64,000 nt of DNA, taken from the NCBI GenBank assembly GCA_028288305.1, contig JAQBOA010000056.1, positions 54,026 to 118,025 of the forward strand. The letters run 5' to 3'. Below the pieces are notes generated by a model. That model saw only the letters and a program-made list of their open reading frames with translations. It had not been told where the DNA came from and did no database searches. Of this stretch, positions 5,774-53,247 are shown in pieces. The DNA is from Mucilaginibacter sp. Lineage in GTDB: Bacteria; Bacteroidota; Bacteroidia; Sphingobacteriales; Sphingobacteriaceae. The translations under genes were made by a program, and so were the position numbers. Within the stretch, counting starts at the first letter, position 1; each line of letters begins with the position of its first letter.

Positions 5774-5777
5774 AAAA

Positions 5778-5872: not shown

Positions 5873-5907
5873 TTAAACAAACCCCCCATTGCTTTGTTAT
5901 TATCCAC

Positions 5908-6111: not shown

Positions 6112-6171
6112 TAAGAGGTCTTAAGTCACATTTCCAACTTAAGTCAAGACTTCGGACTAAAGACTTTGGAC

Positions 6172-7974: not shown

Positions 7975-7979
7975 TTTAT

Positions 7980-8219
7980 TTACGAATTACGATTTACGAA
8001 TTACGATTTTTTATTTCGGATTTTTCACTTTATAATTTGTTTTCAGTGGCGTTCAAGAGTGCTTCGCAGTTTCGGAATTACGATTTCGGATTTAATCTTT
8101 TTTAATTTTGGATGATAAATCTTTATTTATAATTCTCAACATTGAACTGATATTTTTGTCAATTTAGAATTGTCTTACTTTGTTTTTATAAATCTGAAAT
8201 CGTAATTCGTAAATCTTAA
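7980..8219. repeat. Inverted heptamer tandem array (TTACGAA/TTCGGAT ... ATCGTAA)
   Basis: TTACGAA TTACGAT TTACGAA TTACGAT at 7980-8007; second block ~8070-8095; inverted arm ATCTGAA ATCGTAA TTCGTAA at ~8193-8213. Confidence 0.8.
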
Positions 8220-8220
8220 A

Positions 8221-9054
8221 TTAATACCGCACTTCAGTTAGATACAAACCACAAGCCGGTACTGATGTCCCTGCATTACTACGGTTTTTACTTTCAATAA
8301 TATTGCGGACAGCTTCTGGCTCAATTTCATGTTTGCCTACCATTAAAAGGGTGCCTACAATTGCCCGTACCATATTACGTAAAAAACGATCTGCAGAGAT
8401 ATGAAAAACAATTCCATCATCTGTTAGTGTCCATTCCGCTTTTGTTATTTTACAAATATTGGTTTTAACTTGTGTATTTGATTTACTGAAACAGCTAAAG
8501 TCGATATGTTCTTTTATAATATCGGCAGCTTTATTCATTAAAAAAATATCCGGCTTATCACGGATCTGCCAGGAATACCCCTGTTTAAAAGGATCTTTAT
8601 TAAAATGGATATGATACTCATACGTACGTAAAACAGCATCAAACCGTGCGTGTGCACTTGCTTCAACCGGGAAAATATTTTTTACAGCAATATCATGGGG
8701 CAGTATGGAATTTATACTCCTTATCAAATTGATTTTGTCCATAGTCCATAGACCATAGTCCATGGAAGTTTCCCTGTTATTGAGGATGGTTCCCTCATTT
8801 TTACTTTCATTTATGGACCATGGACTATTGACTATGGACTCTCCTTCCGCATCGAAATGTGCAAAAAACTCCCTTGCATGTACACCTGTGTCCGTACGTC
8901 CACAACCGGTAGTCTCAATTTGTTCACGTAAAATAACAGATAGGCTTTTATTCAATACTTCCTGCACGCTTAATGCATTTGGCTGCACTTGCCAGCCATG
9001 ATAACGGGTACCATCAAAAGAAAGTTCAATAAAAAAGCGTTGTTTTTCGGACAC
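8221..9054 (-). CDS. truA: tRNA pseudouridine(38-40) synthase with internal in-frame repeat insertion
   Basis: FDGTRYHGWQVQ, GCGRTDTGVHA catalytic Asp, FLRNMVRAIVG; GTG start. Confidence 0.95.
   Translation of the reverse strand: MSEKQRFFIELSFDGTRYHGWQVQPNALSVQEVLNKSLSVILREQIETTGCGRTDTGVHAREFFAHFDAEGESIVNSPWSINESKNEGTILNNRETSMDYGLWTMDKINLIRSINSILPHDIAVKNIFPVEASAHARFDAVLRTYEYHIHFNKDPFKQGYSWQIRDKPDIFLMNKAADIIKEHIDFSCFSKSNTQVKTNICKITKAEWTLTDDGIVFHISADRFLRNMVRAIVGTLLMVGKHEIEPEAVRNIIESKNRSNAGTSVPACGLYLTEVRY
8737..8839. repeat. Inverted heptamer array inside truA (GTCCATA x4 / TATGGAC x4)
   Basis: GTCCATA GTCCATA GACCATA GTCCATG (8737-8764), 47-nt spacer, TATGGAC CATGGAC TATTGAC TATGGAC (8812-8839). 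Confidence 0.9.
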
Positions 9055-9063
9055 AGAGCAAGA

Positions 9064-9192
9064 AGTGTTGTAATGTTGAAAAGTTGTAATGTTGCAAAGT
9101 TATGGAAAATGTTTTAGAGGATTAGCTCATGAATTCTATATAATCGAATGAGTCAACCTTCAAACCTTACAACTTTTCAACCTTACAACATC
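9064..9192. repeat. Inverted octamer tandem array (GTTGTAAT/AACCTTAC)
   Basis: GTTGTAAT GTTGAAAA GTTGTAAT GTTGCAAA ... AACCTTAC AACTTTTC AACCTTAC AAC. Confidence 0.75.
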
Positions 9193-9204
9193 AAATAAAA
9201 AAAC

Positions 9205-9720
9205 CTAACTAATATACTCCTTATAGATAGATTCAAACATGATATTATTCTCAACGGCAATGTTGAAAGGGTGATCAAGGAAACTATTACTGTAACCTAT
9301 TGCCTTAGCAAGGTTTTTTAATACTTTGAAATAAGTTATTTCTATACCTTCTATCTGCTGTAAATAAAAAAGGATAAATACATCGCGTTCAAGGGGTGTT
9401 TTACCTGCTTTAATAGCTGCCAGATAAGCCTCCAGGGTCATGGCTTTTATGCCTAATGTATTTGTTTTAGACGGGCTGTCACCTATGGAATTGAATATTT
9501 TTTCCAGCTGATGCAGCTGATTTTCTGTATCGTCGTTTACTTCCTGCACGGCCAATTTCAAAACATTTAAAGTTGCCAGGCTTTTAATTTCTACAAAGAA
9601 ATTTATAAGGTGCTGTTTACCATAATAAATATAGTTTAAGTGCTCAAGGAAGATTTTTTTTAGCAACAGATCGTCCATCACTACATCTTTCGGTTGTAAA
9701 GAAGCTAAAGAATTACTCAT
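9205..9720 (-). CDS. DUF892/YciF-like ferritin-fold protein
   Basis: Helical pattern ..TENQLHQLEKIF.. and ..RDVFILFYLQQIEGIEITYFKVL..; ligands look degenerate. Confidence 0.7.
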   Translation of the reverse strand: MSNSLASLQPKDVVMDDLLLKKIFLEHLNYIYYGKQHLINFFVEIKSLATLNVLKLAVQEVNDDTENQLHQLEKIFNSIGDSPSKTNTLGIKAMTLEAYLAAIKAGKTPLERDVFILFYLQQIEGIEITYFKVLKNLAKAIGYSNSFLDHPFNIAVENNIMFESIYKEYIS

Positions 9721-9847
9721 GATAATTAATTGAGGGGTTAATATTGATTAAATGTACAAATTTTAATAAACAGTTGCTTTTTTCAGGAAAATAAAGTCAT
9801 TTAACAATCACTAAAACAATTATATCTTTACTGAAATATTTGATAAT

Positions 9848-10315
9848 ATGTTACAAAGAATACAAAGTATATACCTGTTACTTGCAAGCCTGGCATTGCT
9901 TGCTTTATTCCTTTTCCCACTTGTTCATAATGTTTATGTAGACGGCAAACCCATAAGTATAATGGTTACCGGCGTTTACCAGGATGTTAACGGCCAGCTT
10001 ACACACACTCAATTTTTTGTCGCACTTACTGTAGCTACTGCAATTGTTGCTTTAATACCATTGCTCATTATTTTTCTGTATAAAAACCGTAAACAACAAG
10101 TCGCCTTATGCTACAGTGCCATACTGGTTATTATTGGTTATAGTTTTTGGATGTCCCAGGCAGTAAAAAAAGTAATGGGAGAAATACAAATAGATACCCA
10201 TAACTGGGGGATAGGCCTTTTCCTGTCTTCAATTAGTTTATTGCTCATGATTTTTGCCATAAAAGCGATACAAAGAGATGAAAAGCTGGTAAAATCTGCT
10301 GATAGGTTGAGATAG
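9848..10315 (+). CDS. DUF4293 family membrane protein
   Basis: MLQRIQSIYL N-terminus, IFLYKNRKQQ, AIQRDEKLVKSADRLR C-terminus. Confidence 0.9.
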   Translation: MLQRIQSIYLLLASLALLALFLFPLVHNVYVDGKPISIMVTGVYQDVNGQLTHTQFFVALTVATAIVALIPLLIIFLYKNRKQQVALCYSAILVIIGYSFWMSQAVKKVMGEIQIDTHNWGIGLFLSSISLLLMIFAIKAIQRDEKLVKSADRLR

Positions 10316-11914: not shown

Positions 11915-13603
11915 ATGACTAAGCTAATAGAATGCGTCCCAAATTTCAGTGAAGGTGTAAACCTTGATATTATCAGACAGATCACCAATGAAATAGAAAC
12001 GGTTGAAGGTGTAAGGTTGCTGAATGTTGATCCCGGCAAGGCGACTAACCGTACCGTGGTAACTTTTGTAGGGGCGCCGGGGAAAGTTATTGAAGCAGCT
12101 TTTTTGGCCATTAAAAAAGCTGGCGAACTGATTGATATGAGCAAACATAAAGGTGAACATCCCCGTATGGGCGCTACAGATGTTTGTCCGCTGATACCTA
12201 TTGCCAATATCAGTATGGAGGAAACTGCTGAATATGCAAGGAAACTGGCAAAGCGGGTTGGTGAAGAGCTGCATATTCCGGTTTATTTGTATGAATATGC
12301 GCAGCCGGATAAAAGCCGTAACAACTTATCGGTGATCAGGGCAGGGGAGTATGAGGGCTTTTTTAAGAAGATAAAATTGCTGGAATGGAAACCTGATTTT
12401 GGTCCTGCTGAGTTTGATGTCAAACGGGGGGCAACAGTTATAGGTGCAAGGGATTTTTTAATAGCCTATAATGTGAACCTGAACACAACCTCTACCCGCA
12501 GGGCTAATTCTGTCGCTTTTGATGTGCGTGAAGCCGGACGTGTTTTGCGCGAAGGCGATCCGGTTAATGGTAAGATAATAACCGATGAAAATGGTAAGCC
12601 AAAATCAATCCCAGGTTCATTAAAGGCGGTAAAAGCTATAGGCTGGTATATTGAGGAGTATGGAATAGCTCAGATTTCCATGAATCTTACCAATATAGAA
12701 GTTACTCCCATGCATGTAGCTTTTGACGAAGTATGTACCAAAGCTACAGAACGGGGCATGCGGGTAACGGGCAGTGAACTGGTGGGATTAATCCCTTTAA
12801 AAGCCATGCTGGATGCTGGTAAGTATTTCCTGCTTAAACAGCAGCGTTCGGTAGGGGTAAGTGAAAAAGAGTTGATCCGGATTGCTATACTTTCAATGGG
12901 ATTGTCTGAATTAGCGCCTTTTAAGCCGGAAGAACGGATTATAGAATATTTGCTTAAAGATAAAGCATCATCCAAACTGGCCTCCATGAGTTTGGCTGAT
13001 TTTGCTGATGAAACTGCAAGTGAAAGCTCTGCACCTGGCGGCGGTTCTATTTCTGCTTATATCGGCGCATTAGGTGCTTCTTTGGCTGCTATGGTGGCTA
13101 ACTTGTCATCCCACAAAAAAGGCTGGGATAACCGCTGGAAGGAATTTAGCGACTGGGCCGAAAGGGGCCAGCAGTATAAGGATGAGCTAATAAAACTGGT
13201 TGATGAAGATACTGCAGCATTTAATAAAGTAATGGAAGCGTTCGGCATGCCAAAATCTACACCTGACGAAAAAGCAGCAAGAGATCACGCTATACAGGAC
13301 GCTACCAAATACGCTATTGAAATTCCTTTTAAAGTGATGCAGGCCGCTTATAGCAGCATGACCGTTATAAAAGCCATGGCCGAAATTGGTAACCCTAATT
13401 CAATATCTGATGCTGGTGTGGCAGCATTATGTGCCCGCAGCGCAGTTATAGGCGCTTTTATGAATGTGAAAATAAACGCTCAAGAGTATAAGGAGCAGGA
13501 TTTTATAAAGGCTATTATTAATGACGGTACTGAGTTAGCGAGAAAAGCAATTGAATTAGAAATTGAAATTATTGGATTAATAAATAATAAAATTCATTTT
13601 TAA
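11915..13603 (+). CDS. ftcD: Glutamate formiminotransferase / formiminotetrahydrofolate cyclodeaminase
   Basis: ECVPNFSEG, HKGEHPRMGATDVCP, APGGGS in cyclodeaminase domain. Confidence 0.95.
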   Translation: MTKLIECVPNFSEGVNLDIIRQITNEIETVEGVRLLNVDPGKATNRTVVTFVGAPGKVIEAAFLAIKKAGELIDMSKHKGEHPRMGATDVCPLIPIANISMEETAEYARKLAKRVGEELHIPVYLYEYAQPDKSRNNLSVIRAGEYEGFFKKIKLLEWKPDFGPAEFDVKRGATVIGARDFLIAYNVNLNTTSTRRANSVAFDVREAGRVLREGDPVNGKIITDENGKPKSIPGSLKAVKAIGWYIEEYGIAQISMNLTNIEVTPMHVAFDEVCTKATERGMRVTGSELVGLIPLKAMLDAGKYFLLKQQRSVGVSEKELIRIAILSMGLSELAPFKPEERIIEYLLKDKASSKLASMSLADFADETASESSAPGGGSISAYIGALGASLAAMVANLSSHKKGWDNRWKEFSDWAERGQQYKDELIKLVDEDTAAFNKVMEAFGMPKSTPDEKAARDHAIQDATKYAIEIPFKVMQAAYSSMTVIKAMAEIGNPNSISDAGVAALCARSAVIGAFMNVKINAQEYKEQDFIKAIINDGTELARKAIELEIEIIGLINNKIHF

Positions 13604-13612
13604 AACCGGCTG

Positions 13613-14851
13613 TCAGTTTCCCACAAGATATTTTAAATATTTTTTAATACTGTCGGAATACGTGGGGAAATCATTTTCAGGTAAGTAGTCATCCAATAAT
13701 TTCACCAGCCGGAATCCTATTCCATTAGCATTTTTATCGGTAGTATTGTCTATTTTTTCAAAAATTTCAGTTCTTATAACATTAATTGGCATTAATTCAT
13801 TCAGACTGTTTGGATTAACTTCTGTAAAAGTTGAAACTAATTTTTGTACTTCGGCAATATATTGATCATCTGATTCCGGCTTCTCGTTGGTTGCATTAAT
13901 TTTATTTACAACAGGGTATAACAACAAATTGTCATTTAAACCTAATTGTTCATCTGATGTAATGCTTTTAGTAAAATAGACATCCCTTTTAAATTTATTT
14001 TCTTGCAGCAAACTCAGAAACAGCCTGTCACCTCTTTGGATAAAATGTTCCTTAAAAGTTGGTTTTAATATCCACGAAAAAACTGTAGTAGTTTGATCTA
14101 CCGGGATGTTAATGGTAGAGTCTGCCCAGTGTTTGTAATTTAAAGTATCTAATGCTGGTTCATTTATGCCGAATTTTAAAGGGGTTGTGCGTTCTATAAA
14201 CCTGGGATACCAATCTGTGTTTAGCATGCTAATGTTGACAATGGTAACGTCGGTACGTAACTTTTCTATTATTTGTAAATAATAAAGCGGAAAAATATAA
14301 TCATCTCCCGACACCATAAGAATCGAATTGGTGCTACAATGGTTTAATACAGAACGGTTAATTGCTAAAATAAAATCATCGAATCCGCCCCTTGTTTTAC
14401 CCGCCTTAAAAGCCCATTTAACTGAATCTTTTTTATTGTCTTTTTTAGTGGCTTTTGCCAGGTATGACAATGCTAATGCGCCCCATTCTGATGTTATTTT
14501 TGAGTATGGATCAAGTGTAACGATCTCGCCTGTGTATAAAGGAGTTAATGTATTTATCTGCTCAAATTCAGCACTGGCTTGTTCAACTAAAGGTAACCGC
14601 ATTTTCGGAATGGCTGATGCATCATTTGAATTAACACGGCTATAAGCGTAACCTAAAAAATAATGCGCTTCGGCACTGCCGGGATTTAGAGTTACAGCCT
14701 TTTGCAGGTTATTTACAGCAGATTTGTAGTCGGGTTTTTCGAGGCCGCTTTTAAACTGGGCCTTTCCCCTGTTTAATAGGGTATCAAACGATTGGCTATG
14801 ACAATCAATGCTTAATATTAATAATAATGGAAGCAGGCTTATATATTTCAT
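13613..14851 (-). CDS. Secreted TPR protein with DUF2723-like C-terminal domain
   Basis: Signal peptide from ATG 14851; TPR (KAVTLNPGSAEAHYFLGYAY); SILMVSGDDYIFPLYYLQ..E..RTDV.IVNISMLNTDWY motif. Confidence 0.7.
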   Translation of the reverse strand: MKYISLLPLLLILSIDCHSQSFDTLLNRGKAQFKSGLEKPDYKSAVNNLQKAVTLNPGSAEAHYFLGYAYSRVNSNDASAIPKMRLPLVEQASAEFEQINTLTPLYTGEIVTLDPYSKITSEWGALALSYLAKATKKDNKKDSVKWAFKAGKTRGGFDDFILAINRSVLNHCSTNSILMVSGDDYIFPLYYLQIIEKLRTDVTIVNISMLNTDWYPRFIERTTPLKFGINEPALDTLNYKHWADSTINIPVDQTTTVFSWILKPTFKEHFIQRGDRLFLSLLQENKFKRDVYFTKSITSDEQLGLNDNLLLYPVVNKINATNEKPESDDQYIAEVQKLVSTFTEVNPNSLNELMPINVIRTEIFEKIDNTTDKNANGIGFRLVKLLDDYLPENDFPTYSDSIKKYLKYLVGN

Positions 14852-15015
14852 TATATTTAAAAATATCTTAATTATACTACATTCGATAATTAAAATATTA
14901 GCTATATATACGATATTATTCATTAAAATGTTTAATTAAAATAATATAATATTAATTTTCATAGGGCGCTGCGGCTTTTTAGCGTTTTTACTTTAATATG
15001 CCGATATTTGAGTTA

Positions 15016-16647
15016 ATGAATAAACTGTCCGGCTGCCTGGTTATATTTCTTTTTCTTCAGTTTGTCTCCTGTACTTCTGATCAATCGTCATCAAAAAAAA
15101 CAATTTTTAATATTAACCTGGATGAAGGCCTTAGCTCCCTTGACCCCGCTTTTGCCCGTAACCATAACGCCCTTTGGATGGATAACCAGGTTTTTAATGG
15201 ATTGGTACAAATTGATGATAGCCTTAAAACACGCCCCTGCATTGCCAAAAGCTGGGAGATATCACCTGATGGGGCAACATATACTTTCCATTTACGGAAT
15301 GATGTTTATTTTCATGACCATCCTCTTTTTAAAAATGGCAAGGGCCGTAAGGCGGTAGCCGCTGATTTTGTTTACAGTTTTTCACGGCTTATTGACCCCA
15401 AAGTAGCATCATCCGGATCGTGGATATTTAGCGATAAGGTTGAAAGCAAAAATTCTTTTACAGCTTTGAATGATACTACCTTTCGTGTTAAACTTAAATA
15501 TCCGTTTCCGCCATTTTTGAGCATGCTAACGGCGCAATATTGCTCAGTTGTGCCACATGAAGTGGTTGATTATTATGGCAAGGATTTTCGTCAACATCCA
15601 GTTGGTACCGGCCCCTTTAGGTTTAAATACTGGAAAGAAGGCGAGGTGATGGTTTTGCTGAAGAATGAAAAGTATTGGGAAAAGGATAAAGATAGTAGTC
15701 GTTTACCCCATCTGGATGCTATACGTGCGACATTTATCGGCGATAAGCAAACCGAGTTTATGGAATTTATCAGTAAAAAGCTTGATTTTTTAAATGATAT
15801 TGATGGCAGTTACCGGGATGATATTCTTACAAAATCGGGTATGGTTACAAAGAAATATAAGGGGAAATTTATTTTAAGTACGGGTCCGTATCTTAATACA
15901 ATTTACCTGGGTATGCTGGTAGATAGCAGCCTGGCCATAGTTAAAAGTTCACCACTGCGGCATCTGAAAATAAGACAGGCTATCAATTACGCTATCGACA
16001 GGCAAAAGATGATCAAGTACCTGCGTAATAATATGGGCACTGCCGGTACAGCAGGCTTTATACCTATGGGGATGCCGGGTTTTAACGCTAAAGAAGTGCA
16101 TGGATATAGTTATAATCCCGACAAGGCCAGGCAATTGTTAAAGGAAGCAGGTTACCCTGATTGCAAAGGCCTGCCCGAAATTGTGTTGCATACAACGGTT
16201 GGTTACCGCAGTTTAATAGAATATGTACAAGGCCAACTGGACAGAATAGGCATAAAGACCAGCGTAGAGATTACCCAGGGCGCAAGTCTGCGCGAACTGG
16301 TATCAAAAAATGGCGTTAACTTTTTTTATGGTTCCTGGATAGCCGATTACCCGGATGCAGAAAACTACCTGTCTGTATTTTACTCGAAGAACAAAATACC
16401 ATTTGGCCCCAACTATACCGGTTTCAATAATAAACAGTTCGACGCCTTGTTTGATCAAGCTTATCATGAAGCAAATGATGAAAAGCGTTATGCCCTGTAT
16501 CGCCAAATGGATAAGCTGGTAATGCAGCAATCGCCGGTAGTGGTTTTGTATTATGATAAGCGTGTTAATCTTTATCAGAACAATATATCGGGATATAGTA
16601 TTAATGCGCAGAATTTACTGACGTTGAAAAGAGTGGTGAAGAAGTGA
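15016..16647 (+). CDS. ABC transporter substrate-binding lipoprotein (family 5)
   Basis: Lipobox-like VSC, LSSLDPAFA, HPVGTGPF, YNPDKARQLL, WIADYPD; start 15016 or 14998. Confidence 0.92.
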   Translation: MNKLSGCLVIFLFLQFVSCTSDQSSSKKTIFNINLDEGLSSLDPAFARNHNALWMDNQVFNGLVQIDDSLKTRPCIAKSWEISPDGATYTFHLRNDVYFHDHPLFKNGKGRKAVAADFVYSFSRLIDPKVASSGSWIFSDKVESKNSFTALNDTTFRVKLKYPFPPFLSMLTAQYCSVVPHEVVDYYGKDFRQHPVGTGPFRFKYWKEGEVMVLLKNEKYWEKDKDSSRLPHLDAIRATFIGDKQTEFMEFISKKLDFLNDIDGSYRDDILTKSGMVTKKYKGKFILSTGPYLNTIYLGMLVDSSLAIVKSSPLRHLKIRQAINYAIDRQKMIKYLRNNMGTAGTAGFIPMGMPGFNAKEVHGYSYNPDKARQLLKEAGYPDCKGLPEIVLHTTVGYRSLIEYVQGQLDRIGIKTSVEITQGASLRELVSKNGVNFFYGSWIADYPDAENYLSVFYSKNKIPFGPNYTGFNNKQFDALFDQAYHEANDEKRYALYRQMDKLVMQQSPVVVLYYDKRVNLYQNNISGYSINAQNLLTLKRVVKK

Positions 16648-16665
16648 TTTACGATTTTTAAAAAT

Positions 16666-16760
16666 TTGTCATTGCGAACGAGGAACGAGCGAAGCAATCG
16701 CAAACTTTGCACATCGGATATGCATAGTTCGCGATTGCCGCGCTGCGCTCGCAATGACAA
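16666..16760. repeat. REP-like family A (TTGTCATTGCGA...TCGCAATGACAA)
   Basis: Inverted termini; copies at 19416-20587, 43017-43076, 45630-45725, 54669-54789. Confidence 0.9.
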
Positions 16761-16796
16761 GAGGCTGATTAATTGCTCCTGCTTGCTTTTTATTAT

Positions 16797-16905
16797 TTGA
16801 ACTAGGATTCGCAGGATTTTAAGATTATAAGATTAATTTGGTTAATAAGATACAAGTTTATTAATCCTGGCAATCCTTAAATCTTACAAATCTTAGTTCA
16901 GACAA
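16797..16905. repeat. Palindromic repeat family B
   Basis: TTTGAACTAGGATT ... AATCTTAGTTCAGACAA with internal AATCCT/AGGATT units. Confidence 0.8.
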
Positions 16906-16979
16906 CAAAAAAAGTCTCCCCAAAATGAGAAGGCTTTTACGGATCAGCTTTCAGCTTTTACCTTTCGGCTTTCGCCTCA

Positions 16980-19244
16980 CTATGCCATTTGTCTGCGGAT
17001 AATATTCAACGCTCCTCCAGCTTTGAACCACTCAATTTGCTGTGCATTGTAAGTGTGATTTACCGGAAAGGATTCAACAGAGCCATCTTTATGATGCAAT
17101 ACAACGGTTAACTGCTTGCCTGGGGCAAACTCTTTTAATCCGGTGATATCAATGTTGTCGTCTTCCTGTATCTTATCATAATCATTGCTGTTGCCAAAGG
17201 TGATAGCCAGCATACCTTGTTTTTTAAGGTTGGTTTCGTGGATACGGGCAAATGATTTTACCAGTATGGCCCTTACGCCCAGGTGACGCGGTTCCATGGC
17301 TGCATGTTCACGTGATGAACCTTCGCCATAGTTTTCATCGCCAACTACAATTGAACCAACTCCATGCGCTTTGTAATCGCGCTGGGTAGCAGGCACCGGA
17401 CCATATTCGCCGGTAAGCTGATCCTTTACAGTGTCGGCTGTGTTATTAAAATAGTTGATTGCTCCAATCAGCATATTGTTAGAAATATTGTCCAAATGGC
17501 CACGGAACTTTAACCATGGCCCGGCCATTGAAATATGGTCGGTAGTACATTTGCCTTTTGCTTTAATCAGTAGCTTCAAACCGGTAATATCTGTACCTTC
17601 CCATGCAGGGAACGGATCAAGTAATTGAAGACGTGAAGATTTTGGATCAACTTTAACTTCTACATGACTGCCGTCTTCAGCAGGGGCCTGGTAACCGGCA
17701 TCTTCAACAGCAAAGCCTTTTAACGGCATTTCAATTCCTAACGGCTCATCCAATTTTACCTGTTCGCCGCGGTCATTGGTCAACGTATCAACAAGCGGGT
17801 TAAAAGTAAGATCGCCTGCTATAGCAAACGCTGTAACAATTTCTGGCGAAGCTACGAATGCATGTGTATTAGGATTGCCATCGTTACGCTTAGCAAAGTT
17901 GCGGTTAAACGAAGTGATGATGGAGTTTTTTCGTGTTGGATCAGCCGTATGCCTTGCCCATTGACCAATACATGGTCCGCATGCATTAGCAAGGACAACA
18001 CCTCCCATTTCTTCAAAAGTATTAAGGTAGCCGTCGCGTTCAACTGTATAACGCACCAATTCTGATCCAGGGGTTATGGTAAATTCAGCTTTTGTTTTTA
18101 AGTGTTTGTCAATAGCTTGTTTGGCGATGGAGGCCGAACGGGTTATATCTTCATAAGATGAATTGGTACATGAACCTATCAAACCAACCTCTAACTCAGC
18201 AGGCCAATTGTTTTCTTTTACTGCTTTAGCAAATTTGGAGATGGGCCAGGCCAAATCGGGTGTGAATGGGCCGTTTACGTGCGGTTCCAATTCGGTAAGG
18301 TTAATTTCTATTACCTGGTCAAAATATTGTTCAGGGTTGGCATAAACCTCATCATCGCCTGTTAAATGTTCTTTTATAGCATCAGCCAACTTAGCAATAT
18401 CAGCACGTTTTGTGCCGCTTAGATAGGCTGCAGCTTTTTCATCGTAACCAAAAATAGAGGTGGTTGCACCAATTTCGGCGCCCATATTACAGATAGTACC
18501 TTTTCCGGTTGCTGATAATGAACGCGCACCTTCGCCAAAATATTCAACAATAGCGCCCGTACCACCTTTCACAGTTAAAATACCGGCAACTTTAAGGATA
18601 ACGTCTTTAGCAGATGTCCAGCCGGATAATTTCCCTGTTAATTTAACGCCGATTAGTTTTGGAAATTTAAGCTCCCATGGCAAACCCGCCATCACGTCGC
18701 AGGCATCAGCGCCACCAACACCAATAGCAATCATACCCAATCCTCCGGCATTTGGTGTATGTGAATCTGTACCGATCATCATACCGCCGGGGAAAGCATA
18801 GTTTTCTAAAACTACCTGGTGAATAATACCGGCGCCTGGTTTCCAGAAACCCAGGCCATATTTATCAGACACCGAAGCCAGGAAATCATAAACCTCTTTA
18901 TTAACATCTTTAGCTGTGCTTAAATCTTCAATAGCGCCAATTTTTGCCTGTATCAAATGGTCGCAATGTACAGTTGACGGGACTGCTACCTGTGGCCTGC
19001 CTGCCTGCATAAACTGTAGCAGCGCCATTTGAGCCGTTGCATCCTGCATGGCAACACGGTCCGGTGCAAAGTCAACATAATCAACTCCGCGTCCGAATGC
19101 GTGTTTAGCATCACCTTCAGAAAGGTGGGCGTATAATATTTTTTCAGTTAAAGTTAAGTGTTTACCAGTCGCTTTGCGGGCAGCAGCCACACGGGTGCTG
19201 TAGCGGTCGTAAACTTTTTTGATCATATCTAAATCAAAAGCCAT
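16980..19244 (-). CDS. acnA: Aconitate hydratase (mitochondrial-type, common in Bacteroidota)
   Basis: [36 protein letters not shown] (Fe-S Cys), [15 protein letters not shown]. Confidence 0.96.
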
Positions 19245-40774: not shown

Positions 40775-42206
40775 ATAATACTATCGGATTCCCTATATAG
40801 TAATCGATTACTTTACTTCTGAATATCATCTGGTACCTCGCTGCGATCATATCGTTTTGCGATTTGTTATAATTGGTAAGCGACGTGTTATAATCAAGTG
40901 TATTAACCAGGCCGGCATCGTACCGTTGTTTGGTAATATTTAATGCTTCTTTGTTCGATTCATAAGTTTGCAGGGATGATTGATAGCTTTTTTCCGCAGC
41001 CTGCAAGTCGAGCATAGCCTGAATAATGGTTTTGCTTAACGTATTTTTTGCAAGCTGGGTAGTAAGTTCGGCGTACTCATAATTTAATTTAGCCTTTCTA
41101 ACCGATGTACGGGCCATGAAACGATTAAAAATTGGTATCTGCAAACTTACGCCTATTGATTCATTAAAATTATTTCCAAACTGGCTTAATGCCGAGTAAG
41201 GACCATAAACAGGTTGTGCACTTGTGATGGTAATTGGCTGGCCCTGAACCGTACCTATCTGTTGCGTAACTTGTGCGGTACCTATTACTTGTGTTGTAAT
41301 TTGATTGGAATAATTAGAACCTACTCCACCAAACAGGGACACTGTTGGGTAATAATTACCTTTAGCTATTTTGATAGCCTGAGCGTATGTTTGCTGCTGC
41401 AACTCTGCAAGTTTAATATCAGGATTTATACTAAATGCAGTTTTAATTACATCAGTAGAATTGTACAATGTTCTTATATCAGTTAATTTACTAATATCAG
41501 GCCTTTCTACGGTTATATTTGTTGCCGGATCCATTTCCATATATTGTTTTAATATCAAAATGGCCAAATCAGTCTGATTTTGAGCATTCGTTAAATTTAG
41601 TTCAGCAGTTGAAACCTGGGCCTGGGCCTGGGCTAGGTCAGCCTTTGTTTGATTACCGGCATCAAAGTTTTTCTGTGTCCTATCTAAAGTAATTTTAGCA
41701 AGTTCAATTTGTTGGTTTGCAGCAATCACCAGATCCTGATCAGTAAGTATAGTCAAATATTCAACGACAACGTTTAAAAGCAGATCATTTTTAACTTTTG
41801 CAGTACTTGTTTTATCAACATCAAGCAACAATTTATTTTGCAATATCTGGTTGCGTAACTGGCCCCCCTGAAAAAGAGTAACAGATAGCGAAGCAGCTCC
41901 ATTCACATATAGAAAAGCTTTACTGCTATAGGTATAAGTAGCTAAGTTAGGACTACGGCCAAAATTATAAGAAGCTTGAGGGTTAGCGGTTAAACTTGGC
42001 AATTGATTATTTTTCGCTTGTTTGTAATCTTCATTAGCTAACGATTCAGTAAGCTGGGCCTGTTTAATAGTCAAGTTATTTTGTATGGTAAGGTCAACCG
42101 CTTTTTGAAGGCTTATTACTTGCTGGGCCTTTGTTGTAAAACTTAATGCAATCAAAAATAAAATACTTAAGCTTATTTTTTTAAATGTTAATATAGTTTC
42201 TGTCAT
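40773..42206 (-). CDS. TolC-family outer membrane protein
   Basis: Signal peptide, LFQGG, VSLQIPIFNRF, RYDAGL. Confidence 0.92.
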   Translation of the reverse strand: MTETILTFKKISLSILFLIALSFTTKAQQVISLQKAVDLTIQNNLTIKQAQLTESLANEDYKQAKNNQLPSLTANPQASYNFGRSPNLATYTYSSKAFLYVNGAASLSVTLFQGGQLRNQILQNKLLLDVDKTSTAKVKNDLLLNVVVEYLTILTDQDLVIAANQQIELAKITLDRTQKNFDAGNQTKADLAQAQAQVSTAELNLTNAQNQTDLAILILKQYMEMDPATNITVERPDISKLTDIRTLYNSTDVIKTAFSINPDIKLAELQQQTYAQAIKIAKGNYYPTVSLFGGVGSNYSNQITTQVIGTAQVTQQIGTVQGQPITITSAQPVYGPYSALSQFGNNFNESIGVSLQIPIFNRFMARTSVRKAKLNYEYAELTTQLAKNTLSKTIIQAMLDLQAAEKSYQSSLQTYESNKEALNITKQRYDAGLVNTLDYNTSLTNYNKSQNDMIAARYQMIFRSKVIDYYIGNPIVL

Positions 42207-42350
42207 TAGATTATATTTGTGAATAGTTCATGGTTAACAGGATTGTTTTCTCTTAATCTAAATTATTAATAATTTTAAGCCCGCGTAATAACACAATAAT
42301 ATTAGTTTTAAGAATGGTAGTACTATGAACCATCATCTATACTAAAAAAA

Positions 42351-42974
42351 ATGTACCTGGTTAAAACACCCTGGCTGCTTAAAAAGCTATATCCTAAACT
42401 AATATGGAATGTTAAACAGAGCTCCCGGTGCATTTATTTGACTTTTGACGATGGCCCTATACCCATTGTTACACCTTTTGTTTTAAATATTTTAAAACAG
42501 TATAATGCAAAGGCTACATTTTTTTGTATTGGCGATAATGTACGCAAGCATCCGGACATTTTTGAAGAGGTAAAAAAAGATGGTCATGCCATAGGTAATC
42601 ACACCTATAATCACCTCAAAGGGTGGAAAACCGAAGACAATACATACCTGGAAAACTTTACAAAAACGGATAATTTACTTCATACCGACTTGTTCAGGCC
42701 GCCATATGGACGTATAAAAAGATCGCAGGTAAAATTGCTTAAAAAAGCCAAACCCGGTTTAGAAATCATCATGTGGACAGTATTATCAGGTGATTTTGAC
42801 ATTAATCTTAAACCTGAAAAGTGTTTGGGTAATGTATTGAAAAATACAAGCAGCGGAGATATTGTTTTGTTTCATGATAGTTTAAAAGCTTATGAAAGGA
42901 TGGAATATGCATTACCGAGGGCGATGGAGTATTGGAGTAAAGAGGGATACGAGTTTAAGGGCCTCAATATTTAA
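42351..42974 (+). CDS. Polysaccharide deacetylase (CE4)
   Basis: LTFDDGP, GNHTYNH, LFRPPYG, IVLFHD. Confidence 0.94.
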   Translation: MYLVKTPWLLKKLYPKLIWNVKQSSRCIYLTFDDGPIPIVTPFVLNILKQYNAKATFFCIGDNVRKHPDIFEEVKKDGHAIGNHTYNHLKGWKTEDNTYLENFTKTDNLLHTDLFRPPYGRIKRSQVKLLKKAKPGLEIIMWTVLSGDFDINLKPEKCLGNVLKNTSSGDIVLFHDSLKAYERMEYALPRAMEYWSKEGYEFKGLNI

Positions 42975-43016
42975 TATTGAAAAGTGATTGTCACAAAAGT
43001 ATAGTAACAATTAAAT

Positions 43017-47169: not shown

Positions 47170-47394
47170 TGCGGTTATTCTTATTTGAGTTTATAATTTA
47201 GATAAATCGAATTTAGCTTAAAAAAGTCTTTCAGCATTACAATGCCTTTACAATTTTTGTCAACAAGATATCCCGTGTTGATTCGCCGACAATGGTAGGT
47301 GGCACAGTTATTTAAAATACAAACTAATTTCACACTTCTGGAATTCAGGCAGTCCTTTAACTAAAGCCCCCGATGTCCGACACTAATTTTTCAA

Positions 47395-47413
47395 GTCCAA
47401 GTGACACTTGGAC
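47395..47413. repeat. REP-like family E hairpin (GTCCAAGTG..CACTTGGAC)
   Basis: Same arms at ~48157-48178. Confidence 0.7.
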
Positions 47414-47506
47414 AGGCGCTTGAAATAATTCTAATGTTATTTAAAAATCAGATTGGATATATCAATATATTGCAGCATTAAATAATCTTAAACCGTATCA
47501 TTAAAT

Positions 47507-48109
47507 ATGAAATATTGCCTGGTTTTGCTGCTTACTATAAGCCTTAAATGTTTTGGGCAGGACTACAAAACCCAAATTGCCGAATACCAACAAAAATATA
47601 AGGGTGATTTCCTGACTGAACCAAATTCTCCATTAAAAAAGGATGATCTACAATTTCTTCGCTTTTACGATGCAGACAGTACTTACAGAGTTGTGGCTAA
47701 TATGGAAATTTTATCGAATGAATCCACTTTTGTAATGCCCGTTTTTAATGGAACCGGACGACAATATATTCGTTATGCGCTGCTTAAATTTGTACTTAAA
47801 GGTAAACCTATGCAGCTTACCTTGTACAGAAACATTGCTTTGCTAAAGCTGCCTGAATATAAAGATTATTTATTTCTCCCCTTTACCGATGACACCAACG
47901 GCACGACTACCTATGCAGGAGGGCGGTATATTGATTTGAGTGTAAAAGATATTAATGGCAACAGTATAGTGATCGACTTTAACAGAGCATATAACCCGTA
48001 TTGTGCTTTTAGCGGCGGTTACTCCTGCCCGAAACCGCCAGATGAGAACCACATGCAGATTGCTGTTGAAGCTGGTGAGAAATTGTTTGCAGGGGAGAAA
48101 AAGCATTGA
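47507..48109 (+). CDS. DUF1684 domain-containing protein
   Basis: LFLPFTDDTNGTTTYAGGRY, IDFNRAYNPYCAF...SCPKPP..N...IAVEAGEK. Confidence 0.93.
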   Translation: MKYCLVLLLTISLKCFGQDYKTQIAEYQQKYKGDFLTEPNSPLKKDDLQFLRFYDADSTYRVVANMEILSNESTFVMPVFNGTGRQYIRYALLKFVLKGKPMQLTLYRNIALLKLPEYKDYLFLPFTDDTNGTTTYAGGRYIDLSVKDINGNSIVIDFNRAYNPYCAFSGGYSCPKPPDENHMQIAVEAGEKLFAGEKKH

Positions 48110-48125
48110 GATTATAAATTCTGGC

Positions 48126-48178
48126 AAGTTTAAGTGTGACACTTAAACTTTTTTGCGTCCAAGTGCAGACACTTGGAC
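48126..48178. repeat. REP-like family E doublet
   Basis: AAGTTTAAGTG-TGA-CACTTAAACTT and GTCCAAGTG-CAGA-CACTTGGAC. Confidence 0.75.
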
Positions 48179-48405
48179 GGGCGGGTTTTGTTGCCAAAGA
48201 ATCTCTAATTACCTTATGAAGGAACGATAACGACAAAAATCAAAGGATTCAGTCATAAATACAGGGTCATCTTATCAAAGTTTAAGGCTGAACCAATAAT
48301 TTACTCTATATCGTAATTCGAATTGTTAAGAATTATAAATTTCTGTTTCGTTAATGTTTTGTACCTTGAACTCACAGCGGTGCTAAACATCACATTTAAT
48401 TTCCT

Positions 48406-51198
48406 ATGCTCCTTTTAATTGACAATTGCACACTTCTCCAATTAGTATATTCGGAAGGTTATAGCCAACAATTGGTTGCATTGGAAAACTTCGTTAATGC
48501 TGGAAATGTATCCATCATCACACATGAGTTAGTTATTGAAGAATGGAAGAAACACAAGGAAGAAGACAAGTCAAGAAAATTAAAGAAACTCTTAAAACCA
48601 AAGGCAATTCCAGATTTAGAAACAATCAGCTTTTTACCAAGTCCCGTTGTAACAACCACAACTCATTTAGATAGCCAGTTTGAACAAGTGGATAAGCTAC
48701 TTCGCGATGCCAAAATACTGACCACCCCACCAGCTATTACTAATGAATTTGCTGAGCGATATAAAAATGGCCTTGCTCCCTTTCATAATAAGAAAGATAG
48801 TCTAAATGACTGGGAAATAATTGGTTCAGCAGGCCATTATTGTGTAATCAACAATATACCACGATTATATTTTGCTTCGTCAAATCATACTGATTTTGCC
48901 AGCAAAATAGATATTGAAAAAACCATCCATCCCGATATTCAAAATAGGTTTCCAGAAGTGGTGATTAGTTATTTCCGTGACTTAGGCGTTTTTTTAAAGG
49001 ATTTGAATACTGTTATTTTACCTCAAAAATATCTCGCCTACAACCTTGTAAGGAATGAAAAATATTCATACAAAGCGTCGGTAAAGAAAAATGACCTGGA
49101 CAGTTTGTATTATTTATTTAAGGACACTTACGAGGAACTATCATTTATCCCTCCTTATATTTTAACAAGATACCATCCTTTTGCTGAACCTGTCAAATCT
49201 TACTGTCATTTCGGTTTGTTCACGATATCTTATGTAAGGGATAGTCTGGTTAGCTTGTTCGAGAATATCGAAATCAACGGGCCTGGAAAATTTGAGATCA
49301 TCCATGAAACTGCATTCTTTGGAATAAAGGATTACCGGGAAAAATTAGAATATGTATTGCTAAGGTTAACGAACAATTTGATCTTTAATCTGGAGGCAAG
49401 TACGAGCAGAAACCGAGTTTCCGTCCACTACACGGATGGAACTTTTTGTGAGTGTGTAAAATGCAGTTATCAAAGACTTGAATTTCTTAAATGCTTACAA
49501 ATACTACCGCAACCCCTAAGCAGCATCGAGGAAAAATTCAAGAATGCTTATTTTCATTATCAGTTTGGCAACTACAACGCTGCCGCCCGTTTATATATTG
49601 ACCTTCAACAGGAAGCGTTAGACAATAATAAATTCATAATTTATTATTTATGTTTTTATAATCTCCGGCATCTTGCAAGGTTCTTGGATAATCCTTTCTT
49701 AACTGTCGAACTGACTCCGCAAGAGCTTTTAATGATAAAAGAGATTGATCCAATCGAAGAATGTACTAAGCTAAAGGCTCGAACCGATTATGATCTCCTG
49801 ACTTTTATTGCAGATGGCGATTTTTTTAAAGGCGCTTTTGAAAGCATATCCGAAATTGTTATCCAGATCGATGATAGTTACTATTCGCATCTAAATGGTG
49901 GTCACAGTACTAATAGCCACATTTGGAATCTTATTCAAAAGTTTGCAGAACTGGATACATTCATCAACAATAATTTTGTGATTTATGATGCATATTCAAA
50001 TTTTGAAAGGCTTTTTGAATTGGTTATAAAAGGGCTTTTTGCCTCTCATGCGATGAATGGCACACAAAACAGTGCTTTAGAAAAATTTGACGACTACCTT
50101 ATCGGTAAAATCATTTTTTACGCAGATAAAAAAAATATATTCAAATATTTCAACCGCTATAAACTTAAATCATTAGCCTACGGTAGCAAGAGAAATTCTA
50201 AAGATTCATTTATTAATTTGGCGAAAAATCTTTTGTCGAATGAGAAAGAAATGAAGTCCACATTTGCTTTGAGCGCAGACAAAGGGAATAGCTATTTTTA
50301 CACTAAATACAATAAGATATTCGACAATTTAATGGCTATGGCCGCAGTACTCAATCTAACCGAATACGAGCTTAATAGATTTGGTAATTGCCTATACCAA
50401 TTTATCAAAACTGAAAAATCATTAAATCATACTGGCTCTGAATCGATAACGAGTTTCATCAGTTCAAAAGGGAAATTTTTAAAAAGAAAATTGTTAGACA
50501 AGCTGACTGATTTCTTCCTTAAAAACATCGATACGTATGAAGGAAACGTTCTTGAAGCTTTTGTAAAATGCTATCCTGACAACACGGTTGAATTTTTTGC
50601 TTATGATTCAATTATAGACAGGTTAAGAAACGAAAGTATTCATTACAATAAAGAGGCCGATATCAGGTTGCTAGCCGTTATTCATCTCAAGGTTATTCCA
50701 GAAGATAAAGTAATAATAGCAAAAGCCATGATGGCACAACTTAAAGCAAAGCCCGATTTTCGGCTATTTTACCTTTGTGTTATACAGGATATCATAAAAT
50801 TAAATCGAAAGATGTTATTGGCATATCTCGATGAAATCGAAATCAAGCCTACTGAGCCTACTTTAAGAACTGTCCTTACAGGTTGGTCGGACAAATACAA
50901 TCGGCGCTTGGATGACCTTGTTAATATATGTTTTAAATTCAATATTAATACTAAATCGAAAACGTTCATAGGTCTTGCAGCGATTGATACTTATTACCGC
51001 TGGCTCTTTGACATGGAGGGATTTGACTATGCTTATTTCAACTTCAATTGGCCAAACCATTATAAGACCAAATTTTATTACGAACGAATGGCCAAATCAA
51101 AAAAGTTAAAGAAGGCGATTATTAATTATTTGCGTTCTAACTCTCACCCAGAATTGGAAAAGACATTGATAAGGATTAGCTTTTACGCTAATACCTAA
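48406..51198 (+). CDS. PIN-domain (DUF4935-like) protein with DSR2-like helical sensor body; putative anti-phage defence protein
   Basis: PIN acidic motifs LLIDN, VIEEW, LNDWEII, SSNHTDF in first ~200 aa; TPR-like middle; C-terminal Y.W..D.E.FDY..F...W motif; AT-rich. Confidence 0.75.
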   Translation: MLLLIDNCTLLQLVYSEGYSQQLVALENFVNAGNVSIITHELVIEEWKKHKEEDKSRKLKKLLKPKAIPDLETISFLPSPVVTTTTHLDSQFEQVDKLLRDAKILTTPPAITNEFAERYKNGLAPFHNKKDSLNDWEIIGSAGHYCVINNIPRLYFASSNHTDFASKIDIEKTIHPDIQNRFPEVVISYFRDLGVFLKDLNTVILPQKYLAYNLVRNEKYSYKASVKKNDLDSLYYLFKDTYEELSFIPPYILTRYHPFAEPVKSYCHFGLFTISYVRDSLVSLFENIEINGPGKFEIIHETAFFGIKDYREKLEYVLLRLTNNLIFNLEASTSRNRVSVHYTDGTFCECVKCSYQRLEFLKCLQILPQPLSSIEEKFKNAYFHYQFGNYNAAARLYIDLQQEALDNNKFIIYYLCFYNLRHLARFLDNPFLTVELTPQELLMIKEIDPIEECTKLKARTDYDLLTFIADGDFFKGAFESISEIVIQIDDSYYSHLNGGHSTNSHIWNLIQKFAELDTFINNNFVIYDAYSNFERLFELVIKGLFASHAMNGTQNSALEKFDDYLIGKIIFYADKKNIFKYFNRYKLKSLAYGSKRNSKDSFINLAKNLLSNEKEMKSTFALSADKGNSYFYTKYNKIFDNLMAMAAVLNLTEYELNRFGNCLYQFIKTEKSLNHTGSESITSFISSKGKFLKRKLLDKLTDFFLKNIDTYEGNVLEAFVKCYPDNTVEFFAYDSIIDRLRNESIHYNKEADIRLLAVIHLKVIPEDKVIIAKAMMAQLKAKPDFRLFYLCVIQDIIKLNRKMLLAYLDEIEIKPTEPTLRTVLTGWSDKYNRRLDDLVNICFKFNINTKSKTFIGLAAIDTYYRWLFDMEGFDYAYFNFNWPNHYKTKFYYERMAKSKKLKKAIINYLRSNSHPELEKTLIRISFYANT

Positions 51199-51325
51199 CC
51201 CGTAAATTTATTACTCCATAATTTTTCTTTGCCCAGGGTAATGGTATGCCTGTATCTTTCCACTTGTTTTTAAGTGTCCTGTTATGATAATTACCATTGT
51301 ATTCAAGTATATATAATAAATTCGC

Positions 51326-51481
51326 CTTTGTTGGTGTTATCACCAACAAAGCAGGTTGATCTTTGGCTAGAGGATAAACTAGTAGCTACAACTTGGTTGC
51401 GCACGGAGCACTGAATGTAAAAACGGCACGATTCTAAAATATATAAACATACCGGTACTTGTTGGTGACAACACCAACAAG
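51326..51481. repeat. REP-like family F doublet (TTGTTGGTG-N4-CACCAACAA)
   Basis: Hairpins at 51326-51351 and 51458-51481. Confidence 0.8.
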
Positions 51482-51487
51482 GGCAGA

Positions 51488-53139: not shown

Positions 53140-53247
53140 TGTCCTCGGGTCTCTCGCAGAGGACCCTGCGCTCAATCTCCAAATGAACCGTAATTCTGAA
53201 ATGATTAGGGTGCGCAGGGTACTCTGCGAGAGACCCTGAGAGACCGA
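53140..53247. repeat. REPIN family D copy 1
   Basis: Two inverted REP hairpins GCAGGGTCTCTCGCAGAGGACCCTGC around spacer CTCAATCTCCAAATGAACCGTAATTCTGAAATGATTAGGGTG. Confidence 0.92.

Follow-up and report, generated by a model that had tools for sequence, protein, structure and literature searches.

A PIN nuclease on a DSR2-like sensor scaffold: a candidate one-gene anti-phage system from Mucilaginibacter

Our analysis concerns a single gene in a 64,000-nucleotide stretch of DNA (the window) from a Mucilaginibacter species (GenBank assembly GCA_028288305.1, contig JAQBOA010000056.1). The gene encodes a protein that begins with a PIN nuclease domain and continues into a long scaffold, and an initial annotation of the DNA had likened that scaffold to the phage-sensing part of DSR2 from Bacillus subtilis. 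In our view the gene is a strong candidate for a new one-gene anti-phage system, and it suggests a wide family of DSR2-type sensors whose effectors are interchangeable. We found 28 full-length homologs with 33–48% identity, all with the identical architecture, and the named ones come from Pedobacter and Hufsiella. The gene looks monocistronic, because the 296-bp gap upstream holds no open reading frame (ORF) of at least 60 amino acids on the + strand and the gene that follows downstream codes for a histidine kinase on the opposite strand; no such + strand ORF follows immediately downstream either. An AlphaFold (AF2) model of the full-length protein, built on a 28-sequence alignment, reaches a mean predicted local distance difference test score (pLDDT) of 85.9. 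It shows a flexible hinge at about residues 205–214 and an alpha/beta domain at about residues 227–345, after which some 30 helices make up the remainder of the chain. The roughly 730 residues behind the PIN domain had been described as helical or tetratricopeptide-like, but the alpha/beta domain shows that they are not all helical. The features at the locus are collected in Table 1.

Table 1. Features of the PIN-scaffold gene and its immediate surroundings, in window coordinates
Feature	Coordinates	Strand	Remarks
PIN-(DSR2-like scaffold) gene	48406..51198	+	930 aa, ATG start, complete ORF, intact
PIN_12 / DUF4935 nuclease domain, predicted effector	48415..48897	+	aa 4–164; fold reaches about aa 200; Pfam PF16289
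Alpha/beta "linker" domain, first part of the conserved scaffold	49084..49440	+	aa ~227–345; found with every effector type
CxCxxC motif C348/C350/C353, candidate metal (zinc) site	49447..49464	+	three Cys as putative ligands
Block 1, resembling DSR2 H2 residues 425–483	49504..49680	+	aa 367–425; sub-profile match
Most variable scaffold stretch, candidate ligand-specificity region	50203..50745	+	aa ~600–780, approximately DSR2 H3
Conserved C-terminal block, motif YYxWLxDMxxFDYxxFxxxW, homologous to DSR2 924–1001 (H4)	50947..51183	+	aa 848–926
Two adjacent upstream hairpins, 48126–48150 and 48157–48178	48126..48178		terminator-like site
161-nt downstream element, 26-nt inverted arms, each arm palindromic	51324..51484		inverted repeat I1

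The N-terminal domain matches the Pfam model PIN_12 with E=2.6e-15 (score 57.7 bits, cutoff 32; model positions 2–172 of 172). Its acidic tetrad consists of D6 (in LLIDN), E46 (VIEEW), D135 (LNDWEII) and D163 (SSNHTDF). Among the 28 homologs these residues are kept in 27 of 27, 28 of 28, 28 of 28 and, counting D or E at the last position, 27 of 28 cases; among the 89 PIN-type members of the wider family described below the figures are 78/78, 89/89, 89/89 and 86/89. Because the tetrad is kept across both sets, the nuclease site is under purifying selection, and by these residues the PIN domain is catalytically intact. The acidic set that had been picked out from the sequence in about the first 200 residues is borne out by the Pfam match and by the conservation of all four acids.

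PIN_12, or DUF4935, has been placed in the VapC-like PIN group; it is of unknown function and usually monocistronic (PMC5499597). Like the protein studied here, stand-alone DUF4935 proteins (Matelska et al. 2017, PMC5499597) belong to this PIN subfamily of the VapC-like group, with four to five conserved acidic residues, and are reported as monocistronic. They are only about 350 amino acids long, however, consisting of the PIN domain and an uncharacterised alpha/beta C-terminal region, and lack the helical solenoid of about 580 residues that brings our protein to 930. We also observe that residues 1–350 of our protein are PIN plus alpha/beta as well; the stand-alone proteins are possibly truncated relatives of the scaffold family.

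The protein resembles VapC-type PIN toxins in its PIN fold and acidic tetrad, and in that it is predicted to arrest growth as an RNase. VapC modules carry an adjacent antitoxin gene, whereas the PIN-scaffold gene does not, and its control would act in cis through the fused sensor of about 700 residues. We rejected a type II toxin–antitoxin (VapBC-like) toxin as the identity of this protein: no + strand ORF of at least 60 amino acids is adjacent, and no small partner gene recurs at the homolog loci.

The initial annotation had staked its proposal on similarity to the middle and C-terminal domains of DSR2, and we find this similarity along three independent lines: the fold, the C-terminal sequence, and a bridging protein. 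Residues ~216–930 (about 715 amino acids) are homologous to the sensor scaffold of DSR2, which comprises the middle (MID) and C-terminal (CTD) domains. For the fold, a Foldseek search of the Protein Data Bank (PDB) with the full-length model gave 49 matches at E<=0.001, and all 49 were chains of B. subtilis DSR2 (best 8wfn_A, E=1.5e-10), among them the SIR2-less DSR2 fragments 8k98_B/C, 8ygk, 8ygo and 8yln. A model of the scaffold alone (residues 216–930; pLDDT 86, predicted template modelling score 0.80) likewise found only DSR2 chains, with template modelling (TM) scores, normalised by query and target, of 0.64/0.65 for 8k98_C and 0.60/0.60 for 8ygo_B; at rank 50 stood a designed protein with a TM of 0.14. 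The viral structure library BFVD, which holds many ankyrin- and tetratricopeptide-like proteins, gave no significant match to the scaffold (TM<=0.19). Because a library so rich in viral helical repeats stays at or below this value, the match to DSR2 is not a generic likeness between solenoids.

The second line comes from the C-terminus. A 22-sequence profile of residues 840–930 matches DSR2 924–1001 in the PDB with E=4.9e-6 to 9.4e-6; no other PDB chains reach significance. The third line is P0176, a protein of 998 amino acids with a SIR2_2 domain, which the scaffold-only profile recovers from 5.8 billion proteins with E=3e-7 (hhalign against the scaffold profile: probability 96.5%, E=7.7e-10, 604 columns). 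P0176 also aligns with B. subtilis DSR2 over residues 11–662, well past the SIR2 domain (E=1.7e-55), and it matches the PADLOC Dsr2 model.

Whole-length sequence searches of the PDB do not reveal this relationship. With phmmer the whole 930-residue protein finds nothing; a 13-sequence profile of the whole scaffold gives zero matches; and a 28-sequence full-length profile reaches a DSR2 fragment at no better than E=0.15. Matches of the latter profile to SV40 T-antigen (E~0.02) were discarded as spurious. It takes structure, sub-profiles and an intermediate sequence to bring the homology to light. That whole-length searches miss DSR2 is probably the reason why nobody has noticed the kinship, and one DSR2 structure paper reports no structural homologs for the MID subdomains.

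Where does the scaffold resemble DSR2? In DSR2 the subdomains are H1 (residues 304–403), H2 (404–550), H3 (551–860) and H4 (861–1005); H2 makes contact with the SIR2 domain and gates it, the CTD dimerises through the two C-terminal helices of H4, and the pocket for the phage tail-tube protein, which also binds DSAD1, is formed by H2–H4 together with H3 of the partner chain (PMC10973363). The initial annotation had compared three blocks with DSR2. The first two fall in H2 and the third in H4. Block 1 does correspond to real DSR2 sequence (SIEDDYKKAFFLACLGRWEESYDLY…VYYLSQINRY, 425–483) and is the top PDB match of a sub-profile of residues 360–480, but its E of 0.097–0.15 is not significant alone. 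Block 2 is real DSR2 sequence too (YKILEFLSDNQFL) and is colinear with the other blocks, but at -1.2 bits it does not reach significance by itself either. The third block fares best: DSR2 DDQYDFFVDPENFDYKKFIPSWLKNY…GNKHMKHHVIEVLKE faces YYxWLLDMDxFDYxxFxxEW…SKSKKLxxxLxxYL in the family, and this is the stretch that gives the significant C-terminal profile match. Over about 185 aligned family members, Y863, Y864, W866, Y875, F878 and W882 are nearly invariant.

Conservation is uneven along the scaffold: the parts that resemble H2 and H4 are conserved, and the one that resembles H3 varies. The fraction of sequences with the majority residue is 0.28–0.47 at residues ~600–780 and 0.52–0.72 elsewhere in the scaffold. 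The assignment of residues ~600–780 to H3 is approximate, being interpolated from two aligned blocks (block 1 and the C-terminal block). If it holds, a conserved gating region and dimer interface go together with a variable pocket, a pattern that would be expected of a sensor in an arms race.

Two other features travel with the scaffold. The linker domain has beta-strands at residues 268–339 in both AF2 models; the alignment of the scaffold with the MmeI_N variant covers it, and tblastn matches to variants with a DUF4365 domain begin at scaffold residue 16. The CxCxxC motif, which the initial annotation had placed at about 49447, starts at exactly that nucleotide, and C348, C350 and C353 are conserved in 27, 28 and 27 of 28 homologs. 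All three cysteines are present in 78/95 PIN, 31/39 DUF4365, 16/21 "QCK" (an unnamed domain, see below), 4/6 TIR and 2/2 SMEK members, as well as in the caspase member and the MmeI_N member. Hence, the alpha/beta domain and the three-cysteine (Cys3) motif accompany the scaffold regardless of the effector. At the aligned site of the SIR2-type homolog P0176 the motif is absent.

How large is the family, and what does it carry? An exhaustive HMMER search with the scaffold profile yielded 917 clusters (50% identity) at E<=0.001, 470 of them at E<=1e-30. Most members come from unlabelled metagenome contigs; those with a taxonomic label (8 GTDB loci, named NCBI homologs and a plasmid copy) are Bacteroidota in 14 of 14 cases. 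We tallied the effectors of 159 members whose N-terminal extension measures 100 amino acids or more, a sample skewed to relatives of the query. PIN is found in 89 of them (by a local hidden Markov model and Pfam PIN_12), DUF4365, a PD-(D/E)xK nuclease, in 39 (Pfam E=1e-12 to 1e-17), TIR_2 in six (Pfam; ThsB-like by PADLOC), SMEK_N in two (Pfam E=4e-33 and 2e-44) and a caspase-like domain in one (PADLOC caspase, 2e-13). Another 21 carry an unnamed "GxD…QCK" domain with no Pfam or PADLOC match, and one, P0153, remains unassigned, its N-terminus being truncated. To these we can add a fusion of MmeI_N (Pfam 3.5e-7) to the scaffold (hhalign 99.7%, E=4.5e-26) on a plasmid of Hymenobacter tibetensis. 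PADLOC effector models for the restriction endonuclease associated with prokaryotic Argonaute (pAgo) (matched by DUF4365 and SMEK), for ThsB, for caspase and for a type IIG restriction endonuclease recognise N-termini in the family.

The term "effector-swapped" in the initial annotation therefore describes the family well: one scaffold carries PIN, DUF4365, MmeI_N, SMEK, TIR, caspase or SIR2. The scaffold is a portable module: Bacteroidota carry it joined to no fewer than seven different toxic effector domains, or at least eight if SIR2 (DSR2, P0176) is counted. The "QCK" domain deserves a separate remark. It occupies the N-terminal ~180 residues of the 21 members (P0056, P0058, P0062, P0065, P0078 and others), follows the pattern "GxxGQxQxGxDxxS…VIQCK…W" and looks like an undescribed PD-(D/E)xK-type nuclease effector.

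The protein shares DSR2's sensor by descent. Like DSR2 (defence-associated sirtuin 2, Bacillus subtilis 29R; PDB 8K98, 8WKN, 8YGK and others), it is a single polypeptide in which an N-terminal effector precedes a scaffold of about 700 residues; the two proteins have ~930–1005 amino acids, and both are solitary one-gene systems. The DSR2 tetramer forms by CTD dimerisation and SIR2 tetramerisation, and our protein keeps, by sequence, the H4-like dimerisation block. The effectors differ: DSR2 has a SIR2 NADase, whereas our protein has PIN_12, so that the predicted output is nucleic-acid cleavage instead of NAD+ depletion. Neither Pfam SIR2 nor the PADLOC Dsr2 and SIR2 models match the 930-residue protein (catalytic residues of the domain in DSR2: N133, D135 and H171). 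The CxCxxC motif is a further difference from the DSR2 type, as represented by P0176, and the hosts are Bacteroidota here and Firmicutes for DSR2. Because SIR2 is lacking and the PADLOC Dsr2 model misses the protein, we class it as an effector-swapped relative of DSR2 and not as a DSR2 member.

Two other kinds of defence system invite comparison. Avs (AVAST) proteins, which are pattern-recognition receptors of the STAND NTPase kind, follow the same logic, with a swappable N-terminal effector (DUF4365-type nucleases, SIR2, TIR, caspase-like) and a C-terminal helical-repeat sensor for a conserved phage protein. Pfam, NCBIfam and PADLOC find no STAND- or NACHT-type NTPase domain in our protein, and its structural matches are to DSR2 only. 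Because the scaffold belongs to the DSR2 lineage, activation would be independent of ATP, unlike in Avs. Short pAgo systems (SPARSA, SPARTA, SPARDA) use a near-identical effector set of SIR2, TIR, DUF4365 and SMEK, with HNH also fused to APAZ, but PIN is not listed among the APAZ-associated effectors (PMC10810196). In short pAgo systems the guide-loaded Argonaute does the sensing, whereas the scaffold family has no APAZ or Argonaute partner and its sensor is a predicted protein-binding solenoid.

Homologs elsewhere help to judge what the gene might do. A pattern-based scan of limited sensitivity found eight loci in 185,579 species-representative genomes, and the neighbourhood of the scaffold homologs is different in each genome. 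The neighbourhoods given here are raw listings per locus. Defence or mobile-element genes are listed at L001 (an SMC-like ATPase and an Upf1-like helicase), L006 (AAA, S8 peptidase and Mrr), L008 (TIR, AAA_15/21 with HNH_5, PIN and a serine recombinase), L009 (AbiEii), L018 (a plasmid, with a STAND/Cap4-like gene of 1325 amino acids) and several of L011–L017, whose 67 neighbour ORFs include three relaxases, two tyrosine integrases, two RadC, a type IIG restriction-modification system, a ThsB-like TIR, SAVED-TIR, PDC-S01 and a NACHT-associated domain. Homologs thus repeatedly sit beside such genes at these loci, and beside housekeeping genes in the window, at L002 and at L004. The varied neighbourhoods fit a mobile one-gene defence.

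Two of these loci merit a closer description. At L008 a compact defence island (5154–9916 and 13384–18968) surrounds the PIN-scaffold homolog. It comprises a TIR protein, an AAA_15/AAA_21 ATPase followed by a 338-residue protein and HNH_5, a small PIN, two unannotated proteins of 440–460 residues and a serine recombinase; the ATPase, the 338-residue protein and HNH_5 look Septu-like. At L018 (Hymenobacter tibetensis plasmid NZ_CP094674.1, 4411–18393), what RefSeq calls a "type IIL restriction-modification enzyme MmeI" is MmeI_N plus the DSR2-like scaffold. The RefSeq name looks wrong, because there is no methyltransferase part. Its neighbours, a DUF4209 protein and the 1325-residue STAND-NTPase/Cap4-like protein, suggest a small defence island on the plasmid.

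In the window itself the gene is indeed solitary, as first described. Upstream lie genes for an HtrA-like protease, HxlR, NmrA, GH28 and DUF1684, and downstream, beyond the histidine kinase, an esterase, DUF1801 and an S41 peptidase, all housekeeping genes. The gene is also AT-rich, with a GC content of 34.4% (34.7% at third codon positions, GC3) compared with 39–51% GC in the flanking genes. A scar of a tRNA attachment (att) site had been proposed about 340 bp away; with ARAGORN and with Rfam (E<=1) the whole window yields neither a tRNA nor a piece of one, and it has no integrase either.

The window comes from a soil metagenome, and the nearest relatives of its DUF1684 gene are from Mucilaginibacter. 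No RNA-seq run contains the locus. Related strains of greater abundance in these soil runs (~90–92% identical) cover the region from GH28 to ~47,300 and again from the kinase at ~51,600, and 47,300–51,200 is covered only by the window's own strain. Because related strains cover the flanks and not this interval, the gene-bearing segment is strain-variable. No exact empty site was recovered, and the contexts of the nearest DUF1684 homologs (75–80% identity; L019–L021) are not syntenic. A solitary, low-GC and strain-variable gene is what would be expected of a horizontally moving one-gene defence. We also noticed contigs in soil runs X2 and X4 that join 49007, inside the PIN gene, to 53423 with 30 unmatched letters in between, which is either a chance short match or a rearranged variant from a related strain.

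Taken together, we read the gene product as an anti-phage sensor-effector in one protein, built like DSR2 but with a PIN_12 nuclease in the place of the SIR2 NADase, and we put the probability of this reading at roughly 70%. DSR2, the only characterised relative, is anti-phage and triggered by a phage tail-tube protein (PMC10973363). In an uninfected cell the H2-like region of the scaffold would hold the PIN domain inactive, and the protein would self-associate through its conserved H4-like C-terminal helices, both following the DSR2 precedent. A phage-made protein would then bind the H2–H4 pocket, with a contribution from the variable H3-like region; the tail tube as ligand is a DSR2 precedent only. 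Binding would loosen the contact between scaffold and effector and release the PIN nuclease. The freed PIN domain would degrade cellular and phage nucleic acid, so that the infected cell is arrested or dead before phage release (abortive infection). Its most likely target is RNA, given that PIN_12 is in the VapC-like group.

Several points weigh against this proposal. Since the PADLOC and NCBIfam models miss the protein, its putative defence role is drawn from homology and context. In three places (the window, L002 and L004) that context consists of housekeeping neighbours only, with no defence island. The tail-tube contact residues of DSR2 are untraceable at 13–16% identity and so give no lead to the ligand. 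The activation geometry may differ from that of DSR2, because a PIN domain cannot rebuild the SIR2–SIR2 tetramer contacts in the same way. The PIN substrate could also be DNA, since the other effectors on the scaffold are mostly DNases. Finally, the Cys3 motif and the alpha/beta domain play no part in an account derived from DSR2.

One could also argue that the protein is a conflict sensor-effector that is not directed against phages. It would then serve in competition between mobile elements, or in addiction, and be triggered by a protein of a plasmid or an integrative and conjugative element. Some homologs do sit on or near mobile elements (the plasmid copy at L018; relaxases, integrases and RadC at GTDB loci), and DUF4365 and SMEK effectors are used by anti-plasmid short pAgo systems. 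We nevertheless consider this unlikely: the only characterised relative responds to a phage tail-tube protein, the copies in the window, at L002 and at L004 lie in a chromosomal housekeeping context with no mobile-element genes, and there is no antitoxin-like partner gene.

It seems quite unlikely, too, that what the scaffold responds to is a nucleic acid or small molecule, such as phage DNA or RNA or a damage signal, with the Cys3 motif and the alpha/beta domain acting as a nucleic-acid-binding zinc module. Pfam finds no nucleic-acid-binding domain in the 930-residue protein. The whole H2–H4-like solenoid, which in DSR2 forms a protein pocket, is kept (TM 0.6), and its H3-like region is the most variable, as for a protein-recognition surface in an arms race. 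What speaks for such a trigger is that CxCxxC and the alpha/beta domain occur in the Bacteroidota family and the motif is missing from the aligned site of P0176, which could mean a different input, and that the effector repertoire mirrors that of the nucleic-acid-guided short pAgo systems.

A housekeeping nuclease for RNA processing or turnover, with a helical scaffold and no immune role, is very improbable. PIN domains also act in the maturation of rRNA and tRNA and in mRNA decay (PMC5499597), and the neighbours in the window are housekeeping genes. A housekeeping enzyme should, however, not be as patchy as eight loci in 185,579 genomes (even in a scan of limited sensitivity), with a neighbourhood that differs from genome to genome, nor be low in GC, strain-variable and built on the scaffold of a defence protein. 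Above all, other members of the scaffold family have TIR, caspase or restriction-type nucleases where this one has PIN, an exchange that would be senseless for a housekeeping RNase. Hardly credible at all is the idea that the likeness to DSR2 is convergence between alpha-solenoids, from which no mechanism could be deduced: identity is low, the alignment has a root mean square deviation of 7–9 A and the whole-scaffold and full-length profiles are blank or at E=0.15 in the PDB, but the C-terminal match is colinear, at E=5e-6 and significant for DSR2 alone, P0176 matches both families significantly, and the 49 best structural matches are all DSR2, with TM 0.6 over ~700 residues including the non-repeat MID; generic repeat proteins stay below TM 0.2.

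Returning to the DSR2-type sensor-effector, is it already catalogued? No model in PADLOC-DB v2.0.0 recognises the protein, and neither this database nor NCBIfam gives a meaningful match for it or its 28 homologs; weak matches of single members to LmuA, REase_II, Cmr5 and DrmD were treated as noise. Phage genomes (tblastn) and viral structures (BFVD) hold no relatives of the protein. In the literature, of which our coverage is incomplete, no paper came up that connects DSR2 and a PIN domain or speaks of "DSR2-like" proteins, and published work on DSR2 structures makes no mention that we found of scaffold homologs with other effectors.

To our knowledge, DSR2 is among the few immune proteins of bacteria whose direct recognition of a phage protein has been resolved by structures, and we know of few defence systems from Bacteroidota that have been tested experimentally. 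If the scaffold is shown to drive nucleases, TIR and caspase-like domains, it would be a general sensor module and a sizeable addition to the defence catalogue. A wider claim, which we hold to be about an even bet, is that DSR2 is an outlying branch of a large, Bacteroidota-centred family of NTPase-independent pattern-recognition receptors. This family would comprise no fewer than 917 clusters at 50% identity, draw on eight or more interchangeable effectors, usually carry the Cys3 metal site and have its members retargeted to different phage proteins through the hypervariable H3-like region, and it would be an ATP-free counterpart of Avs and NLR (nucleotide-binding and leucine-rich repeat) receptors. 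The family raises the testable question of how one allosteric scaffold gates chemically unrelated effectors that cannot rebuild the SIR2 tetramer. Its members are natural chimeras for the study of sensor-effector coupling, for mapping the sensed phage proteins and for predicting DSAD1-like anti-defence proteins.

The repeats around the gene turned out to be of a different nature than first thought. The gene had been described as bracketed by doublets of repetitive extragenic palindromic (REP) sequences. There are hairpins on both sides, but the upstream and downstream types differ and do not form a matched pair. There are no direct repeats on the two sides of the gene; for this reason, and because the hairpins are different elements, we rejected the idea that the repeats are att sites. 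The simplest view of the two upstream hairpins is that they make up the DUF1684 gene's terminator region. The palindrome at 48157–48178 is unique in the window, in exact searches and in searches allowing three mismatches, and has a related copy at 47387–47418. Looked at more broadly, a hairpin element of ~32 nt (TTTTT..GTCCAAGTG..CACTTGGAC.GGCG; 47387–47418 and 48149–48183) brackets the DUF1684 gene and not the PIN gene; these hairpins probably act as terminators in both directions or represent a second REP-like element. Our promoter and terminator scan was uninformative, because its counts are no different from those in shuffled sequence.

Downstream, each arm of the 161-nt element reads TTGTTGGTG-N4-CACCAACAA, and the arms form a pair of hairpins at 51328–51349 and 51459–51480. 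The pair occurs once in the window, and the element folds with -60.2 kcal/mol (z=-6.1). In the source metagenome the element is multi-copy, with a depth spike of ~10-fold and many contigs that share the arms around differing inner sequence. It looks like a dispersed family of REP-like elements or miniature inverted-repeat transposable elements (MITEs) and is probably not part of the PIN-scaffold system.

Another inverted repeat lies at 53147–53236 between the histidine kinase and esterase genes, with 25-nt arms that are 96% complementary and a loop of 40 nt. Rfam reports MIR5070 at 53146–53237 (32.9 bits against a gathering threshold of 100), which we dismissed as chance, a plant miRNA family on a bacterial hairpin. 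Other 1-kb stretches of low GC occur at 8001–10000, 14001–15000, 28001–29000 and 42001–43000 (GC 0.33–0.35, compared with a window mean of 0.40), and these may be acquired genes or AT-rich intergenic regions.

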